Numbered from the stretch's first letter, positions 128-59,730 are shown. The stretch is DNA of 63,647 nucleotides from a virus (IMGVR_UViG_3300046813_000058:1-63647), one strand, 5' to 3'. A program made the numbers and translations. The notes: generated by a model from the sequence alone, not told the origin.

Positions 128-339
128 TCGGCGAGTCGCTCGCGCTGCGCGCCGCCGAACGAGACCGCATGCTCGACCTGCTGGACCGGCTCGAGCGCAT
201 CGTGCCGAGAGACGGGTTCTTGCCGCCGGCGCATCAGGACGTGCTGCGCGAGGTCCGCGCCGCGCTGGTGGAACTCGGCAAGCGGGCGCCGGAAGAACGC
301 CCGGTCTGGGTTGACAGGGGCGCACGGGGTAGTTTATAG
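10..339 (+). CDS. Hypothetical protein
   Basis: 109-aa ORF whose ATG overlaps the stop of 63183-63533 across the circular junction. Confidence 0.6.
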   Translation: MKPDKPKLADGTQPGRKLARRESELLGRGGRGVAALIPDVGESLALRAAERDRMLDLLDRLERIVPRDGFLPPAHQDVLREVRAALVELGKRAPEERPVWVDRGARGSL

Positions 340-340
340 T
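311..340 (+). promoter_or_regulatory. Sigma70-like promoter, leaderless
   Basis: TTGACA(311)-18 bp-TATAGT(335), ATG at 347. Confidence 0.7.
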
Positions 341-346
341 TCGGGT

Positions 347-1192
347 ATGGTGACAGCGCGCAAGGTTCTCCCTGTCCTCGATTCCCGCTTCACATCCCTG
401 CAGGCTCACGAGCGCGACCTGATGCTCGAGATCGACGGCATGACGCTGGAGCAGCTCTGCAAGTTCCCGCTGTTGAGCTCGAACGCGAAGACATCGCTCT
501 CGCTCGACTTTCCCATCGGGCACACGTGCGCGCCTACCGCGCTGTGCTCGAAGGTCTGCTACGCCTCGCGGCCGGGCACTCCGGCGCGGTGGGACAAGAG
601 CCTGCGCATGCGGCTGCGGACGCTGCGCTACTTCCAGCTCGCCACCCCGCGCGCCGCGGCGAACCGGCTGTGGCACGAGTTCTCGCGCCGCCGCACGACT
701 GCGAAGTGGGTCAGCAGGGGCGTGCGGATCGACTTCCTGCGGGTCAACGGGACCGGGGACCTGACGCCGGCGGTGGTCGCCGCGCTGAACCTGTTCATGG
801 TCGACCATTCCGAGGTAGCGCTGTGGGTGGTGAGCCGGCGCCCGCTGATCGCCGCCGGCCTGGAGCCGAGGCCGAACCTGTTCCTGCAGCTCAGCGTGGA
901 CGCGACCACGACGCAGCAGGGCGGGTACCTGACCCGCGAGCTGGTCCGCACGAACCCTCGGGCCTATGTCTCATTCCTGCGCACCAAGGTGGCCGACGAC
1001 GTGAGCGGCGCGGCGATCGTGTTCAACGAGAAGCAGACGTCTGGCCTGCCGTACGACGGCATCGCCGACTGCCCGGTGGACGCCGGCCGGCTGGAGCTCG
1101 GCAACGTGCGCGGCGTGGGCGGCACGGCGTGCTCGAAGTGCCGCAAGTGCTTCAGCCCGAAGACGCTGGAGCGGCAGCGGGCGGCGCTGTGA
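347..1192 (+). CDS. GP88-like Cys-motif (putative Fe-S) protein
   Basis: CAPTALCSKVCYA motif, LRVNGTGD, C-terminal CP...CSKCRKC. Confidence 0.6.
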   Translation: MVTARKVLPVLDSRFTSLQAHERDLMLEIDGMTLEQLCKFPLLSSNAKTSLSLDFPIGHTCAPTALCSKVCYASRPGTPARWDKSLRMRLRTLRYFQLATPRAAANRLWHEFSRRRTTAKWVSRGVRIDFLRVNGTGDLTPAVVAALNLFMVDHSEVALWVVSRRPLIAAGLEPRPNLFLQLSVDATTTQQGGYLTRELVRTNPRAYVSFLRTKVADDVSGAAIVFNEKQTSGLPYDGIADCPVDAGRLELGNVRGVGGTACSKCRKCFSPKTLERQRAAL

Positions 1193-1330
1193 CGAAGCGG
1201 CTCACGCCGATCCAGGCGCTGGACTTGAAGGAGCGGGTCGGAGCGCCGATGCTCGCGCCTCGGCTCAAGCGCCGTCGCGGCCGGGCCGGCGCGTATTCAG
1301 CGCGCCTACCGAGCAGGCGAGGCCGCGTGG

Positions 1331-1699
1331 ATGGCCGCGGACATGATCCGCCAGTTCGTCGTGGTCGGAAAGCGCGAGGATCGATGCCGAAATCATCGAT
1401 ATGCGTGGCGCGATCCGTTCGGCGTTCACGCAATCGAAAGGACGACGCTCGTGAGCGACTACACCGAGATAGACCTCATCGAGGACAACGTCCTTGCGGC
1501 CTGGGGTCGGTGCCGGTTCTGTTCCGGTCGCAAATGCGAAACATGTGACTATACGGGTGTCGAGGTCGAAACGTTCGATTTGACATTCCTGCTACATAAT
1601 TTCGCCGTCGCTGGTGCGCTACGTGCCGCCGAGGTTCGTGGGTATCTCGATGGCGTCAAAGCTGGGATTGCGCTCTGCGAGAGCGAGGTGCCCTCGTGA
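1331..1699 (+). CDS. Hypothetical protein with CxxC-CxxC zinc finger
   Basis: CRFCSGRKCETC; start uncertain. Confidence 0.45.
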   Translation: MAADMIRQFVVVGKREDRCRNHRYAWRDPFGVHAIERTTLVSDYTEIDLIEDNVLAAWGRCRFCSGRKCETCDYTGVEVETFDLTFLLHNFAVAGALRAAEVRGYLDGVKAGIALCESEVPS

Positions 1700-1846
1700 C
1701 CCGCGCTGACATTTACCGCGAGGTCGCCGCAGCGCTCCGGGCCACAGGCGAGCGCGGCTCTGAGGTCGCGGCCCTGCTGGTCGAGCAGTTGGCGGACGAA
1801 GTGACCGAGCGCTTGCAATCGTCCAGCGTAGTGGTAGGGTAAACTC

Positions 1847-2065
1847 ATGGGAGACGAAATGATCCAGATCGACATCCCGCTCTACCTCGCCGATTCCATC
1901 GCTGGGGCGCTGTATTCGCATGCGGATATGTACCGTCGCAGTAAGGGCGATTCGGAAGACGTCAAGGCGCTACGCGAGGCCGCTGACCAGCTGGAGACGA
2001 TCGCCGAGAACATCGGGATTCGTGCTGCGAAGGCGCTGGCCGCGCCCGCCAAGGTCCGCCCGTGA
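1847..2065 (+). CDS. Hypothetical protein
   Basis: 72-aa ORF, GTGA overlap with methyltransferase. Confidence 0.55.
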   Translation: MGDEMIQIDIPLYLADSIAGALYSHADMYRRSKGDSEDVKALREAADQLETIAENIGIRAAKALAAPAKVRP

Positions 2066-2736
2066 CTTGGTTCGTCTCGCAGGACGACGCGGTGCAGTGG
2101 CTGCGCGGCCTCCCCGACACCTCGGTCGACCTCGTGGTCACAGACCCGGCGTACGAGTCCCTGGAGAAGCACCGCGCCGTGGGGACGACCACCCGGCTCA
2201 AGCACAGCGCAGGCTCGAGCAACGACTGGTTCGAGATCTTCCCCAACGCGCGATTCCCGGAGCTCCTCGCCGAGGTCTATCGCGTGCTGCGCGACGACCG
2301 GCACTTCTACCTGATGTGCGACCAGGAGACGATGTTCGTGGTTAAGCCGATGGCCGAGTCCCTGGGGTTCCGGTTCTGGAAGCCCCTGGTGTGGGACAAG
2401 GTCACGATCGGCATGGGGTATCACTACCGCTGTCGGTACGAGTTCGTGCTGTTCTTCGAGAAGGGCAAGCGCAAGCTCAACGACCTGGGCGTAGCGGACG
2501 TGATCACCGCGGCGCGCGTGCGCGATGGGTACCCGACGGAGAAACCCGTCAAGCTCTCGACCGTGCTGATCGAGCAGAGCACGCAGCCCGGCGAGCTGGT
2601 GGTGGACCCGTTCATGGGTTCGGCGTCGGTGGGGGCCGCCGCGTTGATGGCCGGGCGCTCGTTCAAGGGATGCGACCTCAGCACGGAGAGCGTGGCGCTC
2701 GCGTCGCGCCGGCTGGCGATGATCGAGCCGACTTGA
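2062..2736 (+). CDS. DNA N4-cytosine/N6-adenine methyltransferase (beta class)
   Basis: SVDLVVTDPAY catalytic motif, YPTEKP, VVDPFMGS SAM-binding motif. Confidence 0.9.
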   Translation: MTWFVSQDDAVQWLRGLPDTSVDLVVTDPAYESLEKHRAVGTTTRLKHSAGSSNDWFEIFPNARFPELLAEVYRVLRDDRHFYLMCDQETMFVVKPMAESLGFRFWKPLVWDKVTIGMGYHYRCRYEFVLFFEKGKRKLNDLGVADVITAARVRDGYPTEKPVKLSTVLIEQSTQPGELVVDPFMGSASVGAAALMAGRSFKGCDLSTESVALASRRLAMIEPT

Positions 2737-2760
2737 CATCGACCACCGACGTGCTATAAA
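2733..2760 (+). promoter_or_regulatory. Sigma70-like promoter, leaderless
   Basis: TTGACA-16 bp-TATAAA, ATG at 2767 (6 nt downstream). Confidence 0.75.
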
Positions 2761-2766
2761 CGTGGC

Positions 2767-3231
2767 ATGACCACCGCTGACGACAAGAACCCATCTGGCT
2801 TCGTCCCTTGGCCCGAGGGTCAACCGCCCCAGTACAACGGGAGCGGACACCCGTGTGACATGTGGATCGGTCCCTGTTCGTGCGGCGCTACGCACACAGC
2901 GGCTCAGCGGGGACCTGCGGCGCCCGAGGCGCGTCGGGCGAGCGACGACAGGCCGAGCATCGCGGAGCTACAGCGCATCGAGCGCGACCATCTGTCGCCG
3001 GCACCGTGGGAGTCGCTCGACTGGTGGACGCTGGCCGACCGCGCGAAGATTGCCATCCGCAACGCCGCTCCGGTGCTCCTCGAGATCGCTGCGGCGGCGC
3101 TGGCTCGGCAGGCCGCCATGACGGCGATCGAGGAAGACAAGTCGGGCTCTCGGACGTGGGAGGCGCGCTGGGATGCCGTGTATGCTGCCGATCGGGCCAT
3201 CAGAGCCGCGCTCGCCAAGGTCCGCCCGTGA
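2767..3231 (+). CDS. Hypothetical protein; C-terminal part paralogous to 51055-51264
   Basis: SDDRPSIAELQR...AAPVLLEIAAAA...KVRP shared with minus-strand copy. Confidence 0.65.
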   Translation: MTTADDKNPSGFVPWPEGQPPQYNGSGHPCDMWIGPCSCGATHTAAQRGPAAPEARRASDDRPSIAELQRIERDHLSPAPWESLDWWTLADRAKIAIRNAAPVLLEIAAAALARQAAMTAIEEDKSGSRTWEARWDAVYAADRAIRAALAKVRP

Positions 3232-4031: not shown

Positions 4032-4164
4032 GGCAGCGCTACATGCTGACCGTCGGGCGAGACCTCGTGCTGTGCCTGACCTGCTGGATCGACGGAGTGC
4101 GCACGATGCACGTTGACAGCGCCGCCCAGTAGTCTATGCTGGCGCGGTAAACCAAGGAGCAACG

Positions 4165-4503
4165 ATGCCGAACACGGAACCGATCAGGATGGCGAACGGC
4201 GGGATCCCGCGTCGCCTCACGTTCGATCTGATGCGCGAGATGCACATGCACATCTGGCGCACGACCGGACGGAAGCCACACGATCACACGATCCGCTGCA
4301 CGAAGGCGCATCGAGACGCCTATCTCCAGATGTTCGGAGACCGGCTCACCGCGGCCACCATCATGGAACCGGCCTTCGATGGTGTGCCGATCGCGGTCGA
4401 TCTGGTCGATCTGGTCGGTGCAGTGCCTGCCGACCAGATGGAGTGGTTGCTGGCAGGGCAGGTTGTCGGCGTGCTGGCCGACCTGCGGGCCGGTGGCGGC
4501 TAG
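4165..4503 (+). CDS. Hypothetical protein
   Basis: AAGGAG RBS upstream. Confidence 0.6.
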   Translation: MPNTEPIRMANGGIPRRLTFDLMREMHMHIWRTTGRKPHDHTIRCTKAHRDAYLQMFGDRLTAATIMEPAFDGVPIAVDLVDLVGAVPADQMEWLLAGQVVGVLADLRAGGG

Positions 4504-9389: not shown

Positions 9390-9418
9390 TTGCGCGAGCA
9401 CAGTAGCAGTGCTATAAA
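9390..9418 (+). promoter_or_regulatory. Sigma70-like promoter, leaderless
   Basis: TTGCGC-17 bp-TATAAA, ATG at 9425; palindrome TAGCAGTGCTA overlaps -10. Confidence 0.7.
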
Positions 9419-9424
9419 CAGAGC

Positions 9425-9640
9425 ATGAACACGACGACGCAGCTCTCGGCAGGCCAGAAGATCACGAACAGCAAGGCGTTCGTCTCGCCGATCGGCGCCT
9501 ACTTCGCGGCAGGCTCGGTCTTCACCGTCGAGGTGGTGGGGACGGTCAACACGCGATGCCGAGCCAACATGTGCGGCTCGGTGGTGTGGGTGATGGGAAA
9601 TGAGATCGGCGACATCATCGCCACCGACGCGTGGCGCTAA
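9425..9640 (+). CDS. Hypothetical protein
   Basis: Leaderless ORF behind promoter. Confidence 0.6.
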   Translation: MNTTTQLSAGQKITNSKAFVSPIGAYFAAGSVFTVEVVGTVNTRCRANMCGSVVWVMGNEIGDIIATDAWR

Positions 9641-9947: not shown

Positions 9948-10084
9948 TCTCGGAGACACTCGAGGAATTCCGAGCCCGCATCGCGGCGCGCCTCGACGAG
10001 CACTTCGCCAAGTTCGCGCCTGCCATCGCCGCGATCAACGCTGGCATGGAGACCGGCAACCGTAAGCAAGGAGAGCGACGATGA
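9944..10084 (+). CDS. Small hypothetical protein (46 aa)
   Basis: GTGA/ATGA coupling at both ends; MISETLEEFRARIAARL... Confidence 0.45.
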   Translation: MISETLEEFRARIAARLDEHFAKFAPAIAAINAGMETGNRKQGERR

Positions 10085-11187: not shown

Positions 11188-11216
11188 TTGACAGCTGAAT
11201 AGTTGTGCGGTAAACA
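11188..11216 (+). promoter_or_regulatory. Sigma70-like promoter with GCGGTAAAC box, leaderless
   Basis: TTGACA-17 bp-TAAACA, ATG at 11223. Confidence 0.7.
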
Positions 11217-11222
11217 TGATGG

Positions 11223-12014
11223 ATGGGAACAGATATCCATCTCTACGTCGAGCGACGAGATCCATCCACGGGAAGGTGGGGCTTGGTAGCACCACCCGCG
11301 ACGCCACCCGCAGCGGAGCGAACCACGATGAGAACTAACCGAGACGGGAAGGAGTACGCGTACGTCTCGCCGTTCTGGGGTCCGCACGAGTGCATGTACG
11401 ATCCGGGGCCTCCCGACGAAGATAGCGACGATCCCGAGTCCGACCGCATGCGGCGTCTTCGCTGGTACCACAATCGAAACTACGACGTGTTCGCCATCCT
11501 GACCGGCACCGTCCGCAACGGCGTCGGGTTCGCGGGCTGCGACCTCGGCGACGGGTTCCACGGCATAACCAAGGAGCCCCGTGGAGCTCCCGAGGACGCC
11601 GCGAAGCGCTTCAAGAAGGCGACGTGGGACCACAGCGAGAGCTGGCTCGGGCTCGGTGAGATCATGGAATTCAACTGGGATCAGGTCACGCGCAAGCGCG
11701 GTGTGATCCCGCTTGCCAGATCGGATGAGCGGGCATGGGGTCACGATGTTTTCTACACCGACTGGCAGGAGAAACGTGGTGCGCCGTCGTCGTACTGTGG
11801 CGATGTTGGTGGCGGCGGGACGCGAGTCGTCGATGAAGCGACGGCCAAGCACATCCTGTTAACCGGAGGAGGCACGCAAGGGGTATACGTCCGAGTCCAG
11901 TGGACGGAGACCTATCGCGAGGCGGCCAAGGACTTCCTGGCGTTCGTCGATCAGATGCTCTTGCCGCTCGGCGATCCGAATGATACGCGGATCGTCTTCG
12001 GGTTCGATTCATAG
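11223..12014 (+). CDS. Conserved phage hypothetical protein (MGxDIH...RIVFGFDS type)
   Basis: MGTDIHLYVE, RNYDVFAIL, HSESW, RIVFGFDS termini. Confidence 0.7.
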   Translation: MGTDIHLYVERRDPSTGRWGLVAPPATPPAAERTTMRTNRDGKEYAYVSPFWGPHECMYDPGPPDEDSDDPESDRMRRLRWYHNRNYDVFAILTGTVRNGVGFAGCDLGDGFHGITKEPRGAPEDAAKRFKKATWDHSESWLGLGEIMEFNWDQVTRKRGVIPLARSDERAWGHDVFYTDWQEKRGAPSSYCGDVGGGGTRVVDEATAKHILLTGGGTQGVYVRVQWTETYREAAKDFLAFVDQMLLPLGDPNDTRIVFGFDS

Positions 12015-13875: not shown

Positions 13876-14682
13876 TCAGCCCTTGATGGCCTTGGCAGGC
13901 GCCGGGAGTCCGCGCCCGCCGCCGGTCAGGTTAACCGTGGCGCCGGCCGCACGCCCGGCCACCAGACCAGAGCGGCTCGAAATCTGACCGATCGGCGTTG
14001 CCTTGCCAAACGAAGCGGACCGCCGCATGTACGCGGCCTCCACCTCTGCTCGGTCATGGTCGATGATCGCGAGCGCCTGCGTCTCGCGGCTTGTCTGGTT
14101 CGCGGTGTCCGGTCCGGTCAGCGCCGCTGCGGCGGCAACGTCGGATCGCTTGTTCGTTTCTTGTTCAGAGGCCTGCCTGCGCAGCCGCTTCGCGATCACG
14201 CCGGATGCACCGACACGAAACGCGTTCTTCCACGAGCGGGCCGGCTGATCGTAGCCAGCGTCGCGCCGTGCAAGGTGACCGATCGGACCATCCCAGGCCT
14301 CATCGGCGAGCCGGTCGACCTCACGGTAGAGGTACTGGCAAAGGTAGTCCCAGGTCCGGATCGCGCTCGTGCGCCCCATGCCCAAGATCTTCCCTCCACA
14401 GCTGAACATCTCGATCCCGAGTGCCTGGGCGGCACCCGAAGCGATGAACACCTTCCACGCCACGCGCCGGCCTTCGGTCTTAGTTCCCGTGATGCCCTCC
14501 TCGACGATCGGCTCCGCATGGCGCTCGGAGTCGGTCACGCGGAGCATGGCTTCATTGAGGTCGTGCTTGCGCATGAGCTCGGCGGCACGCGCGGCTGCCG
14601 CCGCTGCCTCGTGCTCGTTGCTGCTCTTGCTGAGTTCCAGGAGCTTGCGAATCCGATCGACGATTTGGCTCGGTGCGTTCAT
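13876..14682 (-). CDS. DUF2786-domain protein
   Basis: IVDRIRKLLELSKSSNEHEAAAAAARAAELMRKHDL; SWKNAFRVG. Confidence 0.8.
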   Translation of the reverse strand: MNAPSQIVDRIRKLLELSKSSNEHEAAAAAARAAELMRKHDLNEAMLRVTDSERHAEPIVEEGITGTKTEGRRVAWKVFIASGAAQALGIEMFSCGGKILGMGRTSAIRTWDYLCQYLYREVDRLADEAWDGPIGHLARRDAGYDQPARSWKNAFRVGASGVIAKRLRRQASEQETNKRSDVAAAAALTGPDTANQTSRETQALAIIDHDRAEVEAAYMRRSASFGKATPIGQISSRSGLVAGRAAGATVNLTGGGRGLPAPAKAIKG

Positions 14683-14688
14683 GCTCGA

Positions 14689-14716
14689 AGCGTAGCACCG
14701 CGGTAAACTATGTCAA
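14689..14716 (-). promoter_or_regulatory. Sigma70-like promoter, leaderless, GCGGTAAAC box in spacer
   Basis: TTGACATAGTTTACCGCGGTGC-TACGCT, ATG 6 nt downstream at 14682. Confidence 0.7.
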
Positions 14717-16748: not shown

Positions 16749-16776
16749 TTGACATAGTTTGTAGCGGTGCTATGTT
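16749..16776 (+). promoter_or_regulatory. Sigma70-like promoter, leaderless
   Basis: TTGACA-16 bp-TATGTT, ATG at 16783. Confidence 0.75.
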
Positions 16777-16782
16777 GATGGC

Positions 16783-17181
16783 ATGAATACCTCCATGGAA
16801 CGCGCTTCGCTGCCGCGTATCGTCCGATTCCTCGGTGTCGATGACCACGGGCCGGGCGGATCGGCGAGCTGCCCGCACTGCGGCGCCACCGGGCGCTACG
16901 TGATCCGATTCCAGGTCGAAGACGGACGGCAGCTTGGTGCGATGCGCGGCTGCGTCAAGCTGTTCCCGGTCACCGAGCTGGCGCGGCAGCACGAGCACTT
17001 CGTGGCCAAGCAGACGCGATACTCGGCGCAGCGACCGCCGTGGAAGCTGAATGCGCTTGATGCCGAGGCGCTGCGCGGAATCGAGGAGGCGATCGACGGC
17101 AAGGCCGACGTGCATCAGGCTGTCATCCGCGCGCAAACCGCCCGCAAGATCGCGGCGATGTCCGCAAGGAGGAGACGATGA
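16783..17181 (+). CDS. Hypothetical protein with CPHC motif
   Basis: Leaderless ORF; CPHCG...GC. Confidence 0.65.
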   Translation: MNTSMERASLPRIVRFLGVDDHGPGGSASCPHCGATGRYVIRFQVEDGRQLGAMRGCVKLFPVTELARQHEHFVAKQTRYSAQRPPWKLNALDAEALRGIEEAIDGKADVHQAVIRAQTARKIAAMSARRRR

Positions 17182-18323: not shown

Positions 18324-18581
18324 TCAGCCAATCCCCATCTGTCGCCGTTCGGCCTGCGCATCCTGGGCGTGGCCGCCATGGCCAGACTCGTACGAGCATC
18401 CGCCGGGCCGAGCGGCGCAGTCGATCTCGGCCTCGCCACAGTCGTCGCAGATCGGCAGCAGGTTGCACGCGTCGCACCACAAGGTGGCCGTGCCGGCGGC
18501 CTTCGGGGCACGGCACTTCGCGCGGTCGCAGGTGGTGTTCTGATAGGTGGGCTGAGCCGGTAGGTTCATCGTGTTCATCAC
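18324..18581 (-). CDS. Cys-rich zinc-binding hypothetical protein
   Basis: CDAC...CDDC; leaderless start behind promoter. Confidence 0.6.
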   Translation of the reverse strand: MMNTMNLPAQPTYQNTTCDRAKCRAPKAAGTATLWCDACNLLPICDDCGEAEIDCAARPGGCSYESGHGGHAQDAQAERRQMGIG

Positions 18582-18587
18582 GAGAAC

Positions 18588-18615
18588 AACATAGCACTGC
18601 GGTAAACTATGTCAA
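18588..18615 (-). promoter_or_regulatory. Sigma70-like promoter, leaderless, GCGGTAAAC box in spacer
   Basis: TTGACATAGTTTACCGCAGTGC-TATGTT, near-identical to 14689-14716. Confidence 0.75.
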
Positions 18616-18635: not shown

Positions 18636-18827
18636 TCAGCAGCTACCGCAGCCGCTGAGCCCAGTGTGACACCCGGTCGCCTCGCTCGGGCACCCGTTGT
18701 TCCCGTCCGTGGCTGCGGTGGTGGGATCTGGGATGAACCCGCCGCCGGCTCTGGTCAGCTGCCGGCTCGACAGCACGCGCACGCTCTCACGCGACAGCTT
18801 CAGTACCCGCTTGTTCGTTTGCTTCAT
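18636..18827 (-). CDS. Lanthipeptide/RiPP precursor-like peptide 1
   Basis: Basic leader LKLSRESVRVL...GG, then 33-aa core with 8 Ser/Thr and 4 Cys. Confidence 0.75.
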   Translation of the reverse strand: MKQTNKRVLKLSRESVRVLSSRQLTRAGGGFIPDPTTAATDGNNGCPSEATGCHTGLSGCGSC

Positions 18828-18871
18828 GGGGCGACCGTAGCGCGGGCGGCCTGTTTCAGGTAGGCTCTGCT

Positions 18872-18953: not shown

Positions 18954-18981
18954 TTGCGTTTTAGCGTAGTGCTGCTATAAA
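18954..18981 (+). promoter_or_regulatory. Sigma70-like promoter, leaderless
   Basis: TTGCGT-16 bp-TATAAA, ATG at 18988. Confidence 0.7.
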
Positions 18982-18987
18982 TATGGC

Positions 18988-19167
18988 ATGGCGAACCTTC
19001 AAGAAATTTACGATGCGATCGTGCGCGCTTCGGATATCGTTCTCGGACCGAACGGGAAATCATATGGATGGTCCAAGGCGATCGCGGATACTGCGGTCGA
19101 ATTGATTGACATGCCCAGCGATGATCTCGGTCATGGACTGGAAGCGAACGCGAAGCGGGAGAAATAG
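18988..19167 (+). CDS. Small hypothetical protein (59 aa, not in ORF track)
   Basis: MANLQEIYDAIVRASDIVLG... starts 6 nt after -10. Confidence 0.55.
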   Translation: MANLQEIYDAIVRASDIVLGPNGKSYGWSKAIADTAVELIDMPSDDLGHGLEANAKREK

Positions 19168-19428: not shown

Positions 19429-19733
19429 CCGCGGCGGCGTCGGTCACGTCACGCTGGCTCAGACGCTCGGGCTGTTCGGGACCGATGGCCAGCCGCCTCC
19501 GAGCGCATGGCCGGAGCGCGACAATGGCGTCATCCCGTGGCTCGCCGACCTACAGCGCGAGCATCGACTGAAGACCAAGGCGTAGCTGCTGAATCCTCTT
19601 GACTCCGGCGGCTTGGTCTGTAGGCTTGACAACACTACGGCTGGTTTGGAGCACCAGACGGGAGCACGACAGGGGATGACCCTGGGCGAACGCAGCGCGG
19701 GCGACCCCGCGTGCACATCCCCAGGAGTCTCCC

Positions 19734-32460: not shown

Positions 32461-32498
32461 GACGAGTTTGTAGCACGACTACGCGTAGGGGTCAAGAC

Positions 32499-37627: not shown

Positions 37628-37930
37628 CGCTATCTCACTTTCCCCGGGCGAAAGCCCTCGCGCAGTTTATATCTCCGCGGTAAGGACGATGTCAAGGGCG
37701 CTCGAGGCAGTTCTCGGTCAGCTCGTCCTCGCGGAGCTCGTAGGTCCGGGTCTCGGGGTGGTAGCGCGTCGGCATCGGCGCCTCGACTCGCGTCGGGACC
37801 TCGTCCTCGAAGTCGCGCGGCCTGGATCTGGGCATGGGCGAGAGGGTGAAGTCGGACCGGGCGGCGGCGATATGTCTCGCGCTGGCCTTACGCGTGACGC
37901 TGGCGCTCACCGAGGTGATACGATGGCGCC

Positions 37931-40353: not shown

Positions 40354-40634
40354 GCAAATCTCCAATTCTTGGGCGGAAGCATCGCCCTGCCATATTCATG
40401 GCGCATGGTTTGCGCGTTTTGCAATATCCGTTTGCGAGTTTTACTTACGTGAGATTTTCCCCGCAGGGAAACGCACAGTTTGCGTCCGTGGAACAATTTG
40501 CACGACCGGCGCCGCCAGGGGTCCCTCTCAGCGAAGTGGACGAAGCAACCAGGCCGCGCCGGTCGCTTGGCACGGTACCGCGAGATTCGGCTATTGCGTT
40601 GCGCCTACATACAAGAATTGCCTACGATTCTGCG

Positions 40635-41090
40635 GTGGAAGTCGATTCGAGCCACCCTGCAGAATACTTACCGGCGGACCCCACACCCGAGGAACGGCTG
40701 CTTGTTCCGCATTGTGACCAGCATTCCGTACCCAAGGTAGCGATGCGCGCTCACCGAGTCGCCGAGTGGGCCGGCAACATGGACGGCATGTTCAAGCGCG
40801 CGCGACGTCACGTGATCGCTGGCGTGATCATCGCCGGAACGAACCTTGCCGCGGTCGGCGCCTACTGGCTGCATGCGCACGATGCACAGCTCTCTGCTGC
40901 GATCGCCGCGGAAGAACAGGCGCGGTCGTTCCACGAATATAAGAGCGCGCGGACGCTCGAGCTCGACGACCTGCGCCACCAGATCGCCGAGCTGCGCGCG
41001 GTGCTACTGCGCCTCGGCGTATCGGTCCCGGCGACGGGCGGGGAGACCGACGTCCCGAGCGATGCGGATCGCGTGTCGGTGCGGCGGTAG
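40635..41090 (+). CDS. Membrane-anchored coiled-coil protein
   Basis: GTG 6 nt after TACGAT; one TM segment then coiled coil. Confidence 0.5.
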   Translation: MEVDSSHPAEYLPADPTPEERLLVPHCDQHSVPKVAMRAHRVAEWAGNMDGMFKRARRHVIAGVIIAGTNLAAVGAYWLHAHDAQLSAAIAAEEQARSFHEYKSARTLELDDLRHQIAELRAVLLRLGVSVPATGGETDVPSDADRVSVRR

Positions 41091-41393
41091 CTATCGCGCC
41101 GCAGCGCGCAGGACGGCGCCGCACTCGCCGAGGTCGCACCACACCGGCCGGGGCTCGATGTTCGGCGCGCAAGCCTGCTGGCACGCCTTGAGCTCGGGCC
41201 GGACCCCCGAGCAGGTGCCGAACGAACAGAACGGACACCGCTGCAGGATCCCGAAGGAGCATTCCGTGTTGGAGCTGCAGATGTTGAAGCACGCCAAGGG
41301 GCCGGGGCGAGGCGGTGGCACGGCGGCGGCCGGCGGCGAAGAAGATCCGCAGGCGACAAGGACAAGGAACAGGACGCAGAAGGCCAGCCTCAT
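41091..41393 (-). CDS. Cys-rich putative lipoprotein
   Basis: LVAC lipobox, Pro linker, 10 further Cys (CFNICSSNTEC...CPFCSFGTC). Confidence 0.7.
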   Translation of the reverse strand: MRLAFCVLFLVLVACGSSSPPAAAVPPPRPGPLACFNICSSNTECSFGILQRCPFCSFGTCSGVRPELKACQQACAPNIEPRPVWCDLGECGAVLRAAAR

Positions 41394-41435
41394 GCAGTGG
41401 TTGTACCGCATCTGCACCTCGTGTAGGGTGGTGCC

Positions 41436-41876
41436 ATGCCTTTCGCGAACACCGCGATCCTGGATCTCCTCAAGCTCCTGCTCAACAACACGACGTGGGC
41501 CGGTGTCGGAGACGCCACCGGGATCGTCGGCTCGGGCGCGGCCGGCTCGTGGTTCCTGAGTCTCCACACGGCCACACCCGGGGCCGGCGGCGATCAGACC
41601 ACGAACGAGATCTCATACACCGGGTACGCGCGTGTGGCGGTTGCCCGAACCTCGGGCGGATGGACCGTCTCGGGCAACCCGGCGACGCTGGCGACCACGG
41701 TCAGCTGGCCGATCAGCAGCGGCGGCACCGGTGGCACCGCCACGTTCGTCGGGCTGGGCAAGTCGTCCAGCGGCGCCGGCGAGCTGGCCCTGTTCGGGGC
41801 GATCTCGCCGACGATCACGGTCAACAACGGCGTCACGCCGCAGCTCACCTCGGCCACTACCGTCACGCTGACCTGA
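41436..41876 (+). CDS. Virion structural/tail-fibre-associated protein
   Basis: LSLHTA.PG..G.QTTNEISYTGYARVAV.R motif. Confidence 0.75.
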   Translation: MPFANTAILDLLKLLLNNTTWAGVGDATGIVGSGAAGSWFLSLHTATPGAGGDQTTNEISYTGYARVAVARTSGGWTVSGNPATLATTVSWPISSGGTGGTATFVGLGKSSSGAGELALFGAISPTITVNNGVTPQLTSATTVTLT

Positions 41877-46950: not shown

Positions 46951-47562
46951 TCAGTCCCTGAACGAGTCGCGCATCGGCATGATCACGTAGCGCGTGCCGC
47001 CGTAGCCCTCGAACAGCATCGGCTCGTGCATTGGGCCGTCCACCGGACCGCCCCACATCGTGAGCCGGATGCCGTGCTGCTCGCCGTCGTTGACCACGTC
47101 TTGGATGTCGGCGATCGACGCGAGGTAGCGCGGGTTGACGACGTACCCCGTGGGCGGCGACTTCCCCGGTCCCTTCGGCATGGCCCTGTCGAAGGGCGGG
47201 TAGTCCTCGATGCAGCCGGCCTGGACGACCATCCCTGCCGGCCCCAGGTCGAGCATGATCGTCTTGCCGTCGGGCCGGATCTCGATGACGCGCTTCCCGT
47301 CCTCGTCGGTCAGAACGCCATCCCGGAGCTCATGCTGTGCCGCGGCGGCAGCGAAGATGTGCTCGCGCTTGATCGAGAACTTGGCCTTCGGGTGCGATCC
47401 GACAGGGATGCGCGCCAGCCGATGGCCGTCGGTTGCCACCAGCTCGCCATCGAGCACGGCGACGACCGCGAGGTGCGGCCGGTCGGCCGAGGTTAGGCCG
47501 GGGAAGCTCCACTGCGCCACGGCGCGGAGCAAGTCGGTTCGGATGCGAAGTGGATTAGTCAT
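46951..47562 (-). CDS. Short DNA polymerase III beta-clamp-like protein
   Basis: LVATDGHRLA, YPPFDRAMP, NPRYL, YVIMPMR; leaderless promoter at 47569-47597. Confidence 0.8.
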   Translation of the reverse strand: MTNPLRIRTDLLRAVAQWSFPGLTSADRPHLAVVAVLDGELVATDGHRLARIPVGSHPKAKFSIKREHIFAAAAAQHELRDGVLTDEDGKRVIEIRPDGKTIMLDLGPAGMVVQAGCIEDYPPFDRAMPKGPGKSPPTGYVVNPRYLASIADIQDVVNDGEQHGIRLTMWGGPVDGPMHEPMLFEGYGGTRYVIMPMRDSFRD

Positions 47563-47600
47563 CCGATGTTTATAGCGGAACGGTAGAGCGAGCGCAAGCC

Positions 47601-48247: not shown

Positions 48248-49287
48248 GTTGCCCCGGTCAGCGCGGCGACCTCGGCGTCGGTGGCGTCCTTCTCCTCGAG
48301 CGCGCTGAGGCGCTTGACCTCCGCGCGCAGCTTCGTGATCTGCGCGGCCTGGTCGACGACGGTGGCGATCCGTCGCGTCTCGAGGCCCTGCAGTTCATGG
48401 ACGGTCTTGGCCTGCGTCTCGTTGCGCTCCTCCAACGTGGCGATGCGCTCTTTCCTTTGGGCGAGTTGAGCGACGATCGTTTTGCGCTGCTCGATGGTCT
48501 CGCGCACGAGGTCAAGCCCACGTTGCCAGTCGATAGAGCCCGGCGCGTACCCCAGCGCGGCCGTGAGCTCGTCGCGCTTCGCCTTCCCCTGCGCCAGGTA
48601 CTCGCGGGTCTGATGCGCCGGGTCAGCTTCGAACTCTCGCCGCATGCGCTCGGCCAGCTTCACCGGGGACTCCTCGGCTACCAGCGGGCGACCATCCGGG
48701 TGCACGCCGGCCGCGGCCATCACGGCGTCGATGATCCACTCGGCGGCGCTCCATCCCGTGCGCGGAGCACCAGGATAGCGGGCGACGTTCGCCTCGATTA
48801 CGAGCGCCAGCGCCGCTTCGCGCGTCATCGCCTGCCCGAACAGCGCGGCGGCGCAGCGGACCCGGAGCGCGTCGTCGGCCTCGCCGGTGTGGTAGGGCCA
48901 GCCCTTGCGAGCCAGCCCGAGCGCGTCGGCCACCTCGTCGAGGTCATCGCCGGTCGACGTGGCGATCCGGTCCGCCGTCACCGGGACGTCGCGCATCGCG
49001 GCCAGCTTCCGCATGTCGTCGGCCAAGTCCTTCACGATCTCGTCCGTTGTGGGGGATTCGAGCTTCTTGACCCGGTCGCTCAGGTCCGCGACCGCACCGA
49101 GGAGCGCGCGATAGTCCGTCTTGTCGGTGGCGAGCAGCTCACCGGCGCGCTCGACGCGACCCCGCGTGTCCGCCAGCGCGACCGCGACCTGGTGCAGGTC
49201 GGCGACGGTCGTCGAGAGATCCTGGTAGCGCGAGGCGTGAAGATGTTCGATCAGGTTCGTGAGCATGTCATCGATCGATGTCGTCAT
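48244..49287 (-). CDS. Coiled-coil hypothetical protein
   Basis: ATG 6 nt after TATAAA; heptad-rich. Confidence 0.65.
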   Translation of the reverse strand: MTTSIDDMLTNLIEHLHASRYQDLSTTVADLHQVAVALADTRGRVERAGELLATDKTDYRALLGAVADLSDRVKKLESPTTDEIVKDLADDMRKLAAMRDVPVTADRIATSTGDDLDEVADALGLARKGWPYHTGEADDALRVRCAAALFGQAMTREAALALVIEANVARYPGAPRTGWSAAEWIIDAVMAAAGVHPDGRPLVAEESPVKLAERMRREFEADPAHQTREYLAQGKAKRDELTAALGYAPGSIDWQRGLDLVRETIEQRKTIVAQLAQRKERIATLEERNETQAKTVHELQGLETRRIATVVDQAAQITKLRAEVKRLSALEEKDATDAEVAALTGAT

Positions 49288-49305
49288 GGGATGTTTATAG
49301 CACAA

Positions 49306-50193
49306 CTACCGGGCGTCGTGCGCGCGACCGTCAAGAATCGGCAGGTGGACCGTCTTGCCGCTGCCGTTCCACTGCTTGAAGTGAAATGCCACGCCGTGCC
49401 GCAGCGCCGCCTCACGCGCAGTGCGCACCCAGTCGAGCTGTGCCGGCCGGCGGTTCGGCCCGCTCTCGTCTCCAACGATCAGCCAATGGATCAGACGATC
49501 ATGGCGAACCTCGGCAACGCGAGAGTCCAGCGCCTTGGCCCATGCCTCCGCCGGGATGTGCTCCAGCAGCGGTTCGGCCGAGATCCCTCGGCGTATTGCC
49601 GGCGTCCGGCGCAGGATCGCCGCGCGGCGCAGCAGCTGCTCCGTGTTCTCGCCGGTCACCATGAGGGTGACGTTGGGGTATGGCTCGCTGGCCTCCGCCC
49701 TACCAGACCCGCCGCAGTTGACGCATTTGCCGCCCTGCTCGCAGGTGTCCACGCCGGACCCTGGCGGCTTGCACCAGCTGCAGACCTTGCCCGTCCACGG
49801 CAGCAGCGCCGCGAAGTTCTCCGGCCGCTTCGACAGCATGAGCCAGTCCAGCCACGCCGTCTCCTCGATCAACCGCCACAGCCGATCGCGGGCCTCGTTC
49901 TGCCGCTCGCGAACCTCGGGCACCTGGTGGATCTCCGCCCAGTCCGCCATCGAGCTGCAGAACACGCTCGCGCGCACACCGGCCTTCTCCGCCGCAGCGT
50001 TCCAGGCCAGCGGCTTGCGCCAGTACGCGTCACCAAAGAATCGGCGCGGTGCCGTCGGGCCCCAGTGCTCTCCACCGAGCCGGTGATCGAAAGCCTCGGC
50101 ATAACAAGCGTCGCACCCGGCTGAGACCTTGTCGCAGCCCCACCAGATGTTCCAAGTGTGGTCACACCACGAGATCTGCGTCTTCTCTCCCAT
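49306..50193 (-). CDS. DUF5131 (phage Gp37/Gp68) radical-SAM-like protein
   Basis: TQISWCDHTWN.WWGCDKVSAGCDACYA, VFCSSMAD, LSKRP, SAEPLL, WLIVGDESG, FHFKQW. Confidence 0.9.
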   Translation of the reverse strand: MGEKTQISWCDHTWNIWWGCDKVSAGCDACYAEAFDHRLGGEHWGPTAPRRFFGDAYWRKPLAWNAAAEKAGVRASVFCSSMADWAEIHQVPEVRERQNEARDRLWRLIEETAWLDWLMLSKRPENFAALLPWTGKVCSWCKPPGSGVDTCEQGGKCVNCGGSGRAEASEPYPNVTLMVTGENTEQLLRRAAILRRTPAIRRGISAEPLLEHIPAEAWAKALDSRVAEVRHDRLIHWLIVGDESGPNRRPAQLDWVRTAREAALRHGVAFHFKQWNGSGKTVHLPILDGRAHDAR

Positions 50194-50228
50194 CCGCCGT
50201 TTATAGCTCATCTACGCCACAAATACAA

Positions 50229-51264: not shown

Positions 51265-51557
51265 GGAACGCACCTCCAGCCGTACGCCAAGCTCTGATCG
51301 ACGCGCCCGCCGGATTCGCGGCAGGCGTCGCGCGCGCGGCACTGCTGCACCGCGGACACGAGGACGATCGTCGCCACGAATGCGACGCCGATCGAGACCA
51401 TGCCCGGGATGATGTCCGGCCGGCGCTTCACAGGCACCTCACCACGATGGAGACCCACCACAGGGTGAGCGCGCCCATTGCGACGTAGTACATCAACCAG
51501 AGCAGCCGTCCCTTGCGTTCGCTCATACCCAGTTTATCGCACGGCTACGAGTCGGCG

Positions 51558-52274
51558 TCAAGCCTTGCAGAGCGCGTGCAGCGCGGCGATCCCGCCCGGC
51601 AGCGTGATTGCCGAGATGTCGACGTCCCCCGCGCCTGGCGCCGAGGTCGGGTACCCGCTCGGTACCGCGGACGTCCCGCCGGCCTCGCGGTACTGCCAGA
51701 GCAGCAGGTGCTCGAGGTCAGTTCCGGTCCGCGCCAGGAAGGCCGCCGTGCTCTCGCCTTGCGCGTTGAGGTGCGCGCCGTACAGCGCGATCGCTGAGAG
51801 CGCGCAGCCAAGCCGGTCGGCGATCCCCAGGCTCCGCAGCAGCTCGCCGCCGTAGAGCGTCGCCCGGCGTCCGGTGAGCTCGAAGTATCGGTTGGCGAAC
51901 GTCACCACGCGGTCCTCGGCCAGCGCGCGGCTCGGGCTCCGGATCCGCTGGCCGCCGCGCTCCACGTCCACCATCATCGGCAGCGTGTTGGCCCGGCGTC
52001 CGCCCGCGCTGGTCACTGCGTAGTCCGCCTGTGCCGCGCCGTCGATCCCGAAGTCGAGGTAGTGGTACGCGCCCTCGAAGTGGTCGGGTCGCGAGCCGGC
52101 CGAGCGCAGGAACTTGGCGCGCTCGCTCACGTAGGCCCCGGGGCGATAGTACGTGCCCTGCGAGCACTTGAAGATGGCCACGTGCCACGGCGGTCCGGCT
52201 GCGCAGAACAAGGCCCAGTTCTTCGGGCCATCGCCGGGGTACACGTCCACCGCGAGAGGTTGGAGATTTGTCAT
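51558..52274 (-). CDS. GH25 lysozyme (endolysin)
   Basis: VDVY, KCSQG, GAYHY, MVDVE, LLWQY, GDVD. Confidence 0.85.
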   Translation of the reverse strand: MTNLQPLAVDVYPGDGPKNWALFCAAGPPWHVAIFKCSQGTYYRPGAYVSERAKFLRSAGSRPDHFEGAYHYLDFGIDGAAQADYAVTSAGGRRANTLPMMVDVERGGQRIRSPSRALAEDRVVTFANRYFELTGRRATLYGGELLRSLGIADRLGCALSAIALYGAHLNAQGESTAAFLARTGTDLEHLLLWQYREAGGTSAVPSGYPTSAPGAGDVDISAITLPGGIAALHALCKA

Positions 52275-52334
52275 GCCAGCATGATAGCATTCTGGCCAGT
52301 TTACCGCTATGGTATGCGGTCAAAGAGGTGACAC

Positions 52335-54735: not shown

Positions 54736-54773
54736 CTCTTGACTTCACGTAGCCGTGCGGTAAACTGTGCGGC

Positions 54774-54989
54774 ATGAACGGAAATGACATTCGGGCAATC
54801 GCCGTCCTGTCACGATCGGATCGTGTGGTTCTGGCGAATGAGATCGACGCTCTCGACGCGTGGCGCGACGCTGTCTGTTCGGACAGCCAGGCCGGGCATG
54901 GCTGCGAGGATGGCCACGAGGACTCCTGCCCCGTGGAGATCGCGCGCAAGGCGCTGATCGCAGCCTCTGACCGGCGGCTCGCGCTGTGA
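54774..54989 (+). CDS. Hypothetical protein
   Basis: Behind promoter TTGACT-16 bp-TAAACT (54739-54766). Confidence 0.55.
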   Translation: MNGNDIRAIAVLSRSDRVVLANEIDALDAWRDAVCSDSQAGHGCEDGHEDSCPVEIARKALIAASDRRLAL

Positions 54990-57435: not shown

Positions 57436-57482
57436 CGTCGTTTTGCTCTTGCATCGCTGAGTAGCGGTGCTATAAACAGAGC

Positions 57483-57653
57483 ATGCCCATCAAGACCCCG
57501 CACAAGCTCCACCGTCGCCATGTTGGACCGCTCACCCAAGCGCCGTTCCCGGCCGCTGTTCCGCAGTACCAGACCGGCGCGCGGCACGGTCAGCAGCTCG
57601 CGCTGATCCACCGCTGCACCGTTGTCCTGCCTCGTCTTGCGGAGGCATCGTGA
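57483..57653 (+). CDS. Small hypothetical protein (56 aa)
   Basis: ATG 6 nt after TTGCAT-16 bp-TATAAA (57449-57476); coupled to next gene. Confidence 0.5.
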   Translation: MPIKTPHKLHRRHVGPLTQAPFPAAVPQYQTGARHGQQLALIHRCTVVLPRLAEAS

Positions 57654-58369: not shown

Positions 58370-58692
58370 CCCCGCCGACCCGCCGCATCTGGCTGTTCCC
58401 GGCCCCGGATGGTACGCTCGAGGTGATCCTGCTCGGATCGATCGGGGAGATCGCCTGGGAGTTCGCGGCCGTGCTCAAGTCCGCCGAGGAATGGCCCGGG
58501 TTCCTGAAGGTCGAGCCGATCGCGGTCGGAACCACGGTGCTCGGAATGCGATGCCGGCTCGGGCACCTTGCGACGCACCTCGATCCGGTCGCCGAGGGCC
58601 TGACGTGGCTCGCGACCGAGGATCGATTCATCCACCGCGTGGAGTGGTGCGGGGCCGATAGCCCGCGCGCCGGCAAGATCGGCACGTGGTGA
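58366..58692 (+). CDS. Hypothetical protein
   Basis: Coupled ORF. Confidence 0.55.
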   Translation: MTPPTRRIWLFPAPDGTLEVILLGSIGEIAWEFAAVLKSAEEWPGFLKVEPIAVGTTVLGMRCRLGHLATHLDPVAEGLTWLATEDRFIHRVEWCGADSPRAGKIGTW

Positions 58693-58733
58693 GCGACCTT
58701 GACGATCCCTACAGCGATGCGGTAAACAGTGCT

Positions 58734-59048
58734 ATGGCACTCAGATCGCTACCTTTGACGGACAAGGCCGGCCCCGGTGGGCGCCCACGGGACAGCCGCG
58801 CGCCTGGCAACGCGTTCAGCGAGTGGCTCGCGACCTGCGGGCTCACGCCGAAGGAGGTCGCCGAGGGCCTCGGGTTGTCAGACTCGAGCGTCTACAACAT
58901 GCGCAACGCCTACTTCAAGCCAGGCCGCGAGTTGGCCAACAAGATCGCCGCGTTCACCAAGGGCAAGGTGAGCTCGGCCAGCTGGGACCAGGTCAAGGGC
59001 AGGCCGCGGAAGCCGGCGCCCAAGCGGCCGAGGAAGCGTGCCGCGTGA
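58734..59048 (+). CDS. XRE-family HTH transcriptional regulator
   Basis: GLTPKEVAEGLGLSDSSVYNMRNAYFKPGRELANKI. Confidence 0.85.
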   Translation: MALRSLPLTDKAGPGGRPRDSRAPGNAFSEWLATCGLTPKEVAEGLGLSDSSVYNMRNAYFKPGRELANKIAAFTKGKVSSASWDQVKGRPRKPAPKRPRKRAA

Positions 59049-59272
59049 CCCCGATTGAGCGAGCATTCGTTGCTGGTTTCGAGGCCGCATGCGACGGCGG
59101 AGTAGATTCGCGCCTCGACGCGGCCTTCGCTAGGTTCCTCACCGAGAACCAGGACGCGCCGAACGCAGCCGACCTCGCCACGCTGCGCCGGTTCTGCGGG
59201 ACCGACCACGCGCGCACCGAGCACCCAAAGACCTACGACGCGTTGATCCGCCTGCTCGCCGCATGGACCTGA
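59045..59272 (+). CDS. Hypothetical protein
   Basis: GTGA coupling. Confidence 0.5.
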   Translation: MTPIERAFVAGFEAACDGGVDSRLDAAFARFLTENQDAPNAADLATLRRFCGTDHARTEHPKTYDALIRLLAAWT

Positions 59273-59276
59273 CTTC

Positions 59277-59402
59277 GCGCTCGTAACTCGGCTCGCGCAC
59301 CGAAGGGCTACAACCCGGCCCCGGTAGCGCGCCAAGGTGGGGCTCACGCAGCGTCTGACATCTGCGCGAGCGAGAGCCGGGCCACCTGCCGAGCACGAGC
59401 GC
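59277..59402. ncRNA. Candidate structured RNA element
   Basis: Intergenic; nested complementary segments GCGCTCGT/ACGAGCGC, CTCGGC/GCCGAG, GCTCGCGCA/TGCGCGAGC. Confidence 0.35.
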
Positions 59403-59445
59403 CCTTTCTACTTGCGCGTTATCGTAGTCGTGCTATAAACAGCGC

Positions 59446-59730
59446 ATGACCTACTCGAACCACCGCAAGGCAGCTATCCGCAACTCGCCGAACTGGCTCG
59501 ACGCGCTCGACCTGCCAGCGGAGGCGCCGCTCCCCCGCATCTACCCGGAGCCCCGCACGGCGATCGCCGCCCGCCGGCGCGAGCTCACCGCTCGGACCTA
59601 CGTGCGCTTGGCTCCGGCCCCCATGCCGGCCGCCCCGCGGCGTCCGGTCAGCGCGATCCGTGACGCGATCAGGAACGCCGCGATCCTCGCGTTGGTCGCG
59701 CTCGCCATCGTCGCCTGCGTCCGCTGGTAG
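59446..59730 (+). CDS. Hypothetical protein with C-terminal TM helix
   Basis: Leaderless after TTGCGC-16 bp-TATAAA (59412-59439). Confidence 0.6.
   Translation: MTYSNHRKAAIRNSPNWLDALDLPAEAPLPRIYPEPRTAIAARRRELTARTYVRLAPAPMPAAPRRPVSAIRDAIRNAAILALVALAIVACVRW

Follow-up and report, generated by a model that had tools for sequence, protein, structure and literature searches.

The question raised by IMGVR_UViG_3300046813_000058, a single contig of 63,647 bp (the window, meaning the whole stretch analysed) that represents a complete phage genome of ~68% G+C, is whether its genes are read from leaderless mRNAs, and whether the initiator tRNA (tRNA-fMet) that it encodes is tied to that mode of translation. 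An earlier note on this DNA had proposed a genome-wide leaderless architecture supported by the tRNA or, alternatively, a tRNA that replaces host initiator tRNA cut by VapC-type nucleases. The sequence of the window and its comparison with related genomes show about 25 promoters fused to start codons, which probably give rise to leaderless first cistrons, with the initiator tRNA as an accessory that the arrangement does not require.

Geometry of promoters and start codons

All 24 positions listed in the earlier note carry a start codon on the expected strand (22 ATG and two GTG). At 22 of these sites a TANNN[T/A] hexamer ends 5-7 nucleotides (nt) before the start, the spacing being exactly 6 nt in 19; the exceptions are 41393, where the hexamer at 6 nt is TACAAC with a final C, and 51526, which has either TAAACT at 4 nt or GATAAA at 6 nt. 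The gap between the -10 hexamer and the ATG is only 4-7 nt, and pairing of the upstream sequence with the anti-Shine-Dalgarno sequence is weaker than -6 kcal/mol at 21 of the 24 sites. A -35 TTG with a spacer of 16-19 nt was found at 18 sites and a TGn extended -10 at 12. The commonest form is cTTGAC/TTGCGC-N16-17-gTGCTATAAAc-N5-ATG. With a -10 that stops approximately 6 nt short of the ATG (rarely a GTG), the first transcribed nucleotide is predicted to be the A or G of the start codon itself.

The association was measured against chance with a regular expression, TTG[AC]NN-N16-18-TANNN[TA], applied to both strands with no start codon required. It matched 22 places in the window, 17 of them with an ATG or GTG 5-7 nt past the hexamer, whereas 100 dinucleotide shuffles yielded a mean of 6.4 matches (maximum 13) and a mean of 0.56 with a start codon (maximum 3). 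The enrichment was replicated in two relatives, with 17 of 28 matches fused to starts in G001 and 10 of 16 in G002. An independent consensus scanner run over the first 20 kb returned four strict sigma70 matches against 1.3 expected, three of which are fused sites. A weight matrix for the -10 element alone was abandoned in favour of the two-hexamer expression; reversed-sequence controls scored about equally. The claim that start codons lie about 6 nt past a -10 element, with no room for a Shine-Dalgarno sequence, is thus upheld. The expression also recovered a site missing from the earlier list, at 1847; with its addition, TTG at 16-19 nt is present in 19 of 25 sites, TGn in 12 of 25 and the 6-nt distance in 20 of 25. 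The sites are as follows, with protein lengths in amino acids (aa) and open reading frames abbreviated to ORFs; the GTAG element is described further below.

311..349, plus strand: promoter fused to ATG 347, TTGACA-N18-TATAGT-N6-ATG; 281-aa GP88-like protein; kept in G001
1813..1849, plus strand: promoter fused to ATG 1847, TTGCAA-N16-TAGGGT-N6-ATG; 72-aa ORF; promoter kept in G001, where it precedes an 8-codon ORF
2733..2769, plus strand: promoter fused to ATG 2767, TTGACA-N16-TGcTATAAA-N6-ATG; a different, 123-aa ORF in G001
9390..9427, plus strand: promoter fused to ATG 9425, TTGCGC-N17-TGcTATAAA-N6-ATG; GTAG element
11188..11225, plus strand: promoter fused to ATG 11223, TTGACA-N17-TAAACA-N6-ATG; 263 aa, residue 1 aligning with position 1 of phrog_10141
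14680..14716, minus strand: promoter fused to ATG 14682, TTGACA-N16-TGcTACGCT-N6-ATG; DUF2786 protein; a different, 109-aa ORF in G001
16749..16785, plus strand: promoter fused to ATG 16783, TTGACA-N16-TGcTATGTT-N6-ATG; GTAG element
18579..18615, minus strand: promoter fused to GTG 18581, TTGACA-N16-TGcTATGTT-N6-GTG
18825..18863, minus strand: weak candidate at ATG 18827, TACGGT-N6-ATG, lacking -35 and TGn; divergent from the tRNA; kept in G001
18954..18990, plus strand: promoter fused to ATG 18988, TTGCGT-N16-TGcTATAAA-N6-ATG; -35 begins 8 nt past the tRNA 3' end; GTAG element
32458..32495, minus strand: promoter fused to ATG 32460, TTGACC-N17-TGcTACAAA-N6-ATG; GTAG element
37894..37933, plus strand: site at ATG 37931, TGaTACGAT-N6-ATG; 410 aa
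39506..39542, minus strand: promoter fused to ATG 39508, TTGACA-N16-TATAGT-N6-ATG
40599..40637, plus strand: doubtful site at GTG 40635, TTGCGC-N18-TACGAT-N6-GTG; upstream frame open for 143 codons with eight alternative starts
41391..41427, minus strand: weak candidate at ATG 41393, GCGGTACAAC-N6-ATG
41402..41438, plus strand: site at ATG 41436, TAGGGT-N6-ATG; fibre-like protein (Pfam Gp80)
47560..47597, minus strand: promoter fused to ATG 47562, TTGCGC-N17-TATAAA-N6-ATG
49285..49322, minus strand: site at ATG 49287, GTAGttGTGCTATAAA-N6-ATG; 347 aa; GTAG element; orthologous leaderless site in G002
50191..50228, minus strand: site at ATG 50193, GTAGatGAGCTATAAA-N6-ATG; DUF5131 protein; GTAG element
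51524..51561, minus strand: site at ATG 51526, TTGACG...GCGATAAAC-N5-ATG; weak, preceding only a 32-aa hydrophobic ORF directly after the endolysin gene
52272..52309, minus strand: site at ATG 52274, TGcTATCAT-N6-ATG; GH25 endolysin
54739..54776, plus strand: promoter fused to ATG 54774, TTGACT-N16-TAAACT-N7-ATG; a different, 74-aa ORF in G001
57449..57485, plus strand: promoter fused to ATG 57483, TTGCAT-N16-TGcTATAAA-N6-ATG; GTAG element; a different, 108-aa ORF in G001
58699..58736, plus strand: promoter fused to ATG 58734, TTGACG-N18-TAAACA-N5-ATG; helix-turn-helix protein; orthologous leaderless site in G002
59412..59448, plus strand: promoter fused to ATG 59446, TTGCGC-N16-TGcTATAAA-N6-ATG; GTAG element

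In addition, TGaTACCCT-N7 stands in front of the portal ATG at 12038 (12019-12040), and a block of homology with G001 opens exactly there; this may be a further fused promoter.

Authenticity of the adjacent start codons

No earlier in-frame start is available before a stop codon at 18 of the 23 fused sites tabulated. The window and G001 are sister genomes of ~90% nucleotide identity, and 12 orthologous sites could be compared between them, of which 11 were counted and one was excluded for a suspected indel. Downstream of the ATGs the mismatches are distributed over codon positions 3:1:2 as 63:31:12 (11:8:2 in codons 2-11 alone); upstream, positions -12..-7 and the -35 are spared, the changes falling in the spacer and in the 6-nt discriminator. 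At 2767, 14682, 18988, 54774 and 57483 the gene itself has been exchanged: the promoter is kept up to the ATG, where an unrelated ORF of 74-123 aa starts in G001. The promoter of 57483 is 100% identical between the two genomes up to the ATG, and that of 18988 is also kept in G003, the downstream gene being different in both relatives.

Gene 37931 has a promoter-fused ATG in the window and in G001, while the G002 orthologue (~17780) presents the identical ATG behind GGAGG; this Shine-Dalgarno sequence independently confirms the start and marks a switch between initiation modes. Family profiles begin at the proposed methionine of 11223 and of 50193, in the latter case not at the upstream ATG 50211. 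Usage of ATG is higher among fused starts (22 of 24) than among the other genes (38 of 58; Fisher p = 0.015), although the Shine-Dalgarno and ATG/GTG tallies are approximate, the non-leaderless starts having been picked by our own heuristic. Conservation, the codon-position pattern of substitutions and the family N-termini support the proposed ATGs as the likely true starts. Three sites, 18827, 40635 and 41393, stay doubtful as starts.

Extent of the fused promoters

A gene map of 82 genes comprises 24 that are promoter-fused, 39 with a Shine-Dalgarno-like sequence (pairing of -6 kcal/mol or stronger) and 19 with weak or no pairing; when the 32-aa ORF at 51526 is counted, ~25 of ~83 genes (30%) are of the leaderless type. 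Five of the 22 matches to the regular expression are not fused to a start, and three of these precede leaders with Shine-Dalgarno sites. The leadered counter-examples are as follows.

4113..4167, plus strand: TTGACA-N16-TATGCT, a short leader, AAGGAG and ATG 4165
19599..19736, plus strand: capsid promoter, TTGACT-N16-TAGGCT, a structured and conserved leader of ~100 nt, AGGAG and a TTG start at 19734
37625..37695, minus strand: TTGACA-N18-TATAAA, a leader of ~32 nt and ATG 37627; 113-aa protein with a signal-peptide-like N-terminus

The structural block at 19734-37230 contains no internal fused promoter on the same strand. The majority of recognisable promoters thus directly abut the opening gene of a unit, and the arrangement is conventional for internal genes and in the late operon. 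The description of the architecture as genome-wide was therefore an overstatement, with ~30% of genes concerned and a leadered late operon.

The leader of the capsid gene (19627-19733; L003 ~9870-10000, and the G001 counterpart) is itself more conserved than the surrounding coding DNA, with a block of ~55 nt that is nearly invariant among genomes ~75% identical. It folds into three hairpins, the first of which shows compensatory changes. It may serve to control translation or antitermination in the late operon.

Distribution of the architecture among relatives

The capsid-protein family comprises 233 homologues at E<=1e-10 and 29 IMG/VR loci, and ten near-complete relatives were compared with the window. 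Fused sites were counted under relaxed criteria (a hexamer at 5-7 nt, TTG at -35 or TGn, and an ORF of at least 30 aa). The counts were 29 in the window, 28 in G001, 12 in G006, 11 in G002 and 6 in G009, followed by 4 in G007, 3 in G008, 2 in each of G004 and G011 and 1 in G005; mononucleotide shuffles of the high-GC genomes give 2-4. G010 has 13 such sites, but its genome is 49% GC and its null expectation is 10.2. As the counts are high in few relatives only, the architecture is a trait of a sub-lineage, belonging neither to the whole family nor to high GC content as such.

The tRNA has a narrower distribution. G002, whose capsid protein is 89% identical, is complete with terminal repeats and free of tRNAs, and G006 (capsid 74% identical) carries only a tRNA-Thr(TGT). 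Among seven further near-complete relatives, six have no tRNA match, and G011 has a tRNA-like sequence at 28 bits, below the family cut-off. The tRNA-fMet is confined to the twig that holds the window and G001. Because G002 and G006 keep ATG-fused promoters without tRNA-fMet, the tRNA is dispensable for the architecture. The comparison with relatives lacking the tRNA, which the earlier note had suggested, therefore gives a divided result: fewer sites are present there (11-12 against 28-29), but the architecture persists. For the proposal that the tRNA supports the leaderless mode, nothing computed here backs a causal link.

It might nevertheless be proposed that the initiator tRNA is a dedicated booster, in which additional fMet-tRNA shifts initiation to the 5'-terminal AUGs of the phage and away from Shine-Dalgarno-led host mRNAs. 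The two complete tRNA-bearing genomes do have the top counts (29 and 28, against 11, 12, 6 and background), and the tRNA has been kept, with compensatory changes, in all four records of its twig. Review passages report that more fMet-tRNA strongly enhances leaderless translation and only mildly enhances canonical translation, and that Thermus phage YS40 raises initiation factor 2 (IF2) and lowers IF3 in favour of its leaderless mRNAs; the tRNA would have a parallel effect. Those two genomes are, however, sisters of ~90% identity, and their shared high counts thus represent one acquisition event and not a correlation; 11-12 such promoters exist in G002 and G006 without tRNA-fMet, and the promoter of the tRNA looks weak, with expression and charging presumed. 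A dedicated booster is consequently unlikely. The same low estimate applies to its evolutionary version, the doubtful proposition that a lineage with nearly all of its promoters flush to its starts acquired an initiator tRNA in one recent branch as a device of translational takeover, the tRNA counterpart of the IF2/IF3 shift in YS40. In the literature covered by our searches, no paper connects an initiator tRNA encoded by a phage with leaderless translation.

The initiator tRNA

The gene itself is as follows.

18872-18946, plus strand: initiator-type tRNA, anticodon CAT, found by ARAGORN and by Rfam RF00005 (62.3 bits), with CCA encoded

Bacterial initiator tRNAs are marked by an unpaired 1:72, G:C pairs at 29-31:39-41, A11:U24 and A73, and the determinants of their formylation are G2:C71 and C3:G70. 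The tRNA of the window has a 1:72 mismatch (C1xA72), the G2:C71 pair, A73, a D stem of GAGC/GCUC with A11:U24 as placed by alignment, and the anticodon arm UCGGG-CUCAUAA-CCCGA with its three G:C pairs (29-31:39-41). The identification of a tRNA-fMet as the only tRNA stands, since both ARAGORN and Rfam return a single tRNA and the initiator hallmarks are present. In E. coli it is most similar (87.5% over positions 6-75) to a cluster of three tRNA-Met genes that lies between mltA and amiC and that we take to be metZWV, the annotation being silent on the name; the anticodon arm is identical to that of the E. coli gene. A median of four matching places per E. coli genome fits four initiator genes.

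Four copies are available (the window, G001, G003 (L001) and L016), representing all four records of the twig. The 1:72 mismatch is present in each, as C.A in the window and G001 and as G.A in G003 and L016. Three pairs of the anticodon stem have changed in a compensatory manner in the G003 copy; two of the three G:C pairs are kept there, and the third is a compensatory A29:U41. Retention of the mismatch together with the compensatory changes indicates that the tRNA is under structural selection. Directly upstream, CAGGTAGGCTCTGC is unchanged in the three aligned copies (window, G001 and G003; L016 was unaligned). Within the 18861-18872 region a TAGGCT, likewise invariant in those three copies, ends 5 nt before tRNA position 1, a spacing of the same geometry as at the leaderless genes. 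As a bolder addition, use of this TAGGCT would place the transcription start of the tRNA at its own +1 or +2, leaving no 5' leader for RNase P to remove.

A quite different role, as a replacement or decoy for host initiator tRNA cleaved by a VapC-like anticodon nuclease, would make the gene unrelated to leaderless mRNAs. Enteric VapC cleaves initiator tRNA according to parts of the published work, and the hypothesis that phage tRNAs counter host tRNA nucleases has been put forward in a paper that also reports a general avoidance of tRNA-fMet genes by phages in cases where the nuclease targets the anticodon itself. The loop CUCAUAA is moreover canonical and identical to that of the E. coli initiator, with no escape change visible, and we regard this role as very improbable. 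An attP remnant is also unlikely, as the tRNA is full length with CCA and no integrase was found among the 86 ORFs searched.

G001 contains a second tRNA-like gene on the minus strand (L006 1501-1569, equivalent to G001:C1:38133-38201), which scores 37.7 bits and is not called by ARAGORN. It has an apparent 8-base anticodon loop, CAUACUAA, and lies in a segment that replaces window 15923-17438.

Longer conserved elements at the promoters

Two conserved sequences extend beyond or overlap the core promoters. The first, GTAG-N3-5-GCTAYRWW, is partly palindromic (TAGC..GCTA) and occurs eight times in the window, each time 6 nt before an ATG; there are seven copies in G001, two in G002, eight in G006 and none in six more distant relatives. 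The second is a 9-mer, GCGGTAAAC, found nine times in the window, eight in G001, five in G002 and 0-1 times in the other seven relatives. Its placement relative to promoters varies: three sites have it as their -10, at 14700 and 18599 it overlaps the -35 of divergent promoters, and at 4144 and 46088 it lies within leaders. This 9-mer looks like an operator for a phage regulator.

9403, 16761, 18966, 57461 and 59424, plus strand: GTAG-N3-5-GCTAYRWW
32482, 49309 and 50215, minus strand: GTAG-N3-5-GCTAYRWW
4144, 11207, 14700, 17453, 18599, 46088, 54757 and 58719, plus strand: GCGGTAAAC
52307, minus strand: GCGGTAAAC

These elements bear on a rival explanation, in which the conserved blocks bind a phage regulator or serve a modified or phage-specified polymerase that initiates a few bases off; the genes would then have very short leaders or other promoters. 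The GTAG block is longer than a plain -10, the 9-mer occurs at variable positions relative to the starts, and the late promoters of Thermus phages have special -10 variants that parts of the literature attribute to a phage factor. On the other side, TTG is present at the proper spacing of 16-19 nt in 19 of the 25 sites and TGn in 12; in 20 of 25 the ATG follows at a constant 6 nt, a regularity not called for by an operator on its own; and the 86 ORFs searched with Pfam and PHROGs include no recognisable gene for a polymerase or sigma factor. A regulator site that overlaps a genuine promoter is compatible with fused promoters. As a substitute for them, the regulator or special-polymerase explanation has only a slim chance of being correct.

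Proposed mode of expression

Under the preferred reading, that of promoters fused to leaderless first cistrons, the primary-sigma RNA polymerase of the host would recognise some 25 promoters of the form cTTGAC-N16-18-(TG)cTATAAA. Most units would then open with a leaderless cistron whose 5'-terminal AUG is bound by ribosomes, presumably intact 70S particles, together with fMet-tRNA. Downstream cistrons would depend upon ordinary Shine-Dalgarno sites or coupling, and the late structural operon, with the capsid gene at its head, would be served by its long conserved leader with AGGAG. The initiator tRNA would be an accessory gene of one young twig that, if expressed and charged, most likely tops up the initiator pool and so favours leaderless messages most.

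Several points weigh against this reading. It is drawn from sequence and comparison; the -10 hexamers often end in A (TATAAA, TAAACA) and not in the canonical T; three of the sites (18827, 40635 and 41393) are weak; and the tallies of start types depend in part on our heuristic, as noted above. A phage factor may bind the GTAG element too, which exceeds what a host -10 would need. When the window is aligned with G001, seven borders of homology blocks come within 12 nt of one of the 25 leaderless starts, and 14 come equally near to one of the 58 other starts; fused ATGs thus behave as ordinary gene borders. The idea that leaderless ATGs are recombination hot spots was rejected for this reason. 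As regards the tRNA, position 3:70 is U:G and not C:G, the TAGGCT hexamer is the only promoter-like element upstream and has no -35, and the tRNA-fMet-free G002 and G006 retain the architecture. Bacterial genomes were scanned once with the terminase and once with the DUF5131 protein, and neither scan found a relative.

Comparison with known leaderless systems

Leaderless architecture is not new, and that of the window mirrors arrangements in Deinococcus-Thermus, Actinobacteria and Thermus phages. Sections of a study of Deinococcus radiodurans describe an experimentally validated pattern of the same geometry: a TANNNT motif 6-7 bp before ORFs drives leaderless expression of about one third of genes, other genes have a GGAG motif, and expression is raised by a -35 at ~17 bp (Zhong et al. 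2025, PMC12340547). A TA-like signal ~10 bp upstream is given, in part of an earlier survey, as the leaderless signature of Actinobacteria and Deinococcus-Thermus (Zheng et al. 2011, PMC3160421). The likeness to Deinococcus-Thermus lies in the ~30% of genes with a hexamer 6 nt before the ATG and the use of AAGGAG or GGAGG by others; the differences are that the window is a phage and not a cell, that its -10 is mostly TATAAA or TACAAA, and that it has the TGn extension and the extra GTAG element.

Among phages, the Thermus phages phiYS40 and Lalka27a are the closest precedents, most of their transcripts being reported to have the A or G of the initiation codon as first base. Passages of a review report that phiYS40 raises IF2 and lowers IF3, favouring its own leaderless mRNAs, and that extra fMet-tRNA gives leaderless translation a strong boost and canonical translation a mild one. 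A TAGGGT variant of the -10 is common to the late promoters of Lalka27a and to the window sites at 1847 and 41436. In the Thermus phages the leaderless starts come from mapped 5' ends, whereas the window is known from sequence alone; no close sequence relationship was detected between them, the best terminase matches among deposited phages being <=32% identical, and the leadered late structural operon of the window is unlike the mostly leaderless transcripts of those phages. The Thermus phages are not known to use an initiator tRNA. The classic leaderless phage mRNA, that of lambda cI from PRM, is a single gene against ~25 in the window.

Counterparts of the tRNA exist in the Caulobacter phage CcrSC, where a tRNA-fMet is annotated, and in the Komagataeibacter phage phiKX1, both having a CAT anticodon and a G:C-rich anticodon stem as in the window. 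The phiKX1 tRNA shares C1xA72 and U3:G70 with that of the window, whereas CcrSC has a U1:A72 pair. The initiator tRNA of the window has no other tRNA beside it in a 64-kb genome, and it stands amid many leaderless promoters.

The window offers a clean case, found in nature, of a virus in which leaderless genes stand at the head of most transcription units. Its lineage is uncultivated and has hardly been studied, and its capsid family of 233 homologues has no close cultured phage. Relatives with and without the initiator tRNA, and distant relatives without the architecture, are built-in comparators that make the in vivo effect of extra initiator tRNA on leaderless translation testable once a host is found. 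For annotation, gene callers that expect Shine-Dalgarno sites misplace ~30% of starts in such genomes.

Gene content, host clues and minor observations

Functions assigned with PHROGs and Pfam include RusA, DUF5131, a YqaJ/RecE-like exonuclease and a DNA methylase, in addition to the following.

7820-9379: large terminase
12038-13870: portal
14710-16371: Mu-F-like head protein
19734-20777: SU10-type major capsid protein
34759-36344: baseplate proteins
51558-52274, minus strand: GH25 endolysin

The set of terminase, portal, capsid and baseplate genes identifies a contractile-tailed phage. Among the 86 ORFs searched, Pfam and PHROGs gave no match to an integrase, an RNA polymerase, a sigma factor or a translation factor. 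A close DNA search against deposited phages gave no matches, and the best deposited-phage matches of the terminase, exonuclease and baseplate proteins are <=32% identical and scattered over many host groups. One capsid homologue (P0018), 72% identical and on a 56.6-kb contig, carries the source label of a metagenome-assembled genome of Kofleriaceae (Myxococcota); this label is the sole hint of a host, and the binning of phage contigs is weak evidence. An actinobacterial host is unsupported, with WhiB and LysB absent from the Pfam matches. The promoter form may resemble the alphaproteobacterial consensus, CTTGAC-N17-CTATAT.

A probable lysis cassette occupies 51428-52274 on the minus strand and consists of the GH25 endolysin, the 32-aa hydrophobic peptide with its own fused promoter, and a second small membrane-like ORF that overlaps the stop of the peptide. 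A stretch of lower GC content at 40400-40520, just 5' of the doubtful start at 40635, holds several copies of TTTGC(G/A) and may be an origin or a regulator-binding array. Finally, the GTG starts at 2062, 3228 and 51058 share a preceding motif, CCAAGGTCCGCC (2040-2064 and 3206-3230 on the plus strand, 51058-51080 on the minus strand), which may be a common signal for translation initiation or coupling.

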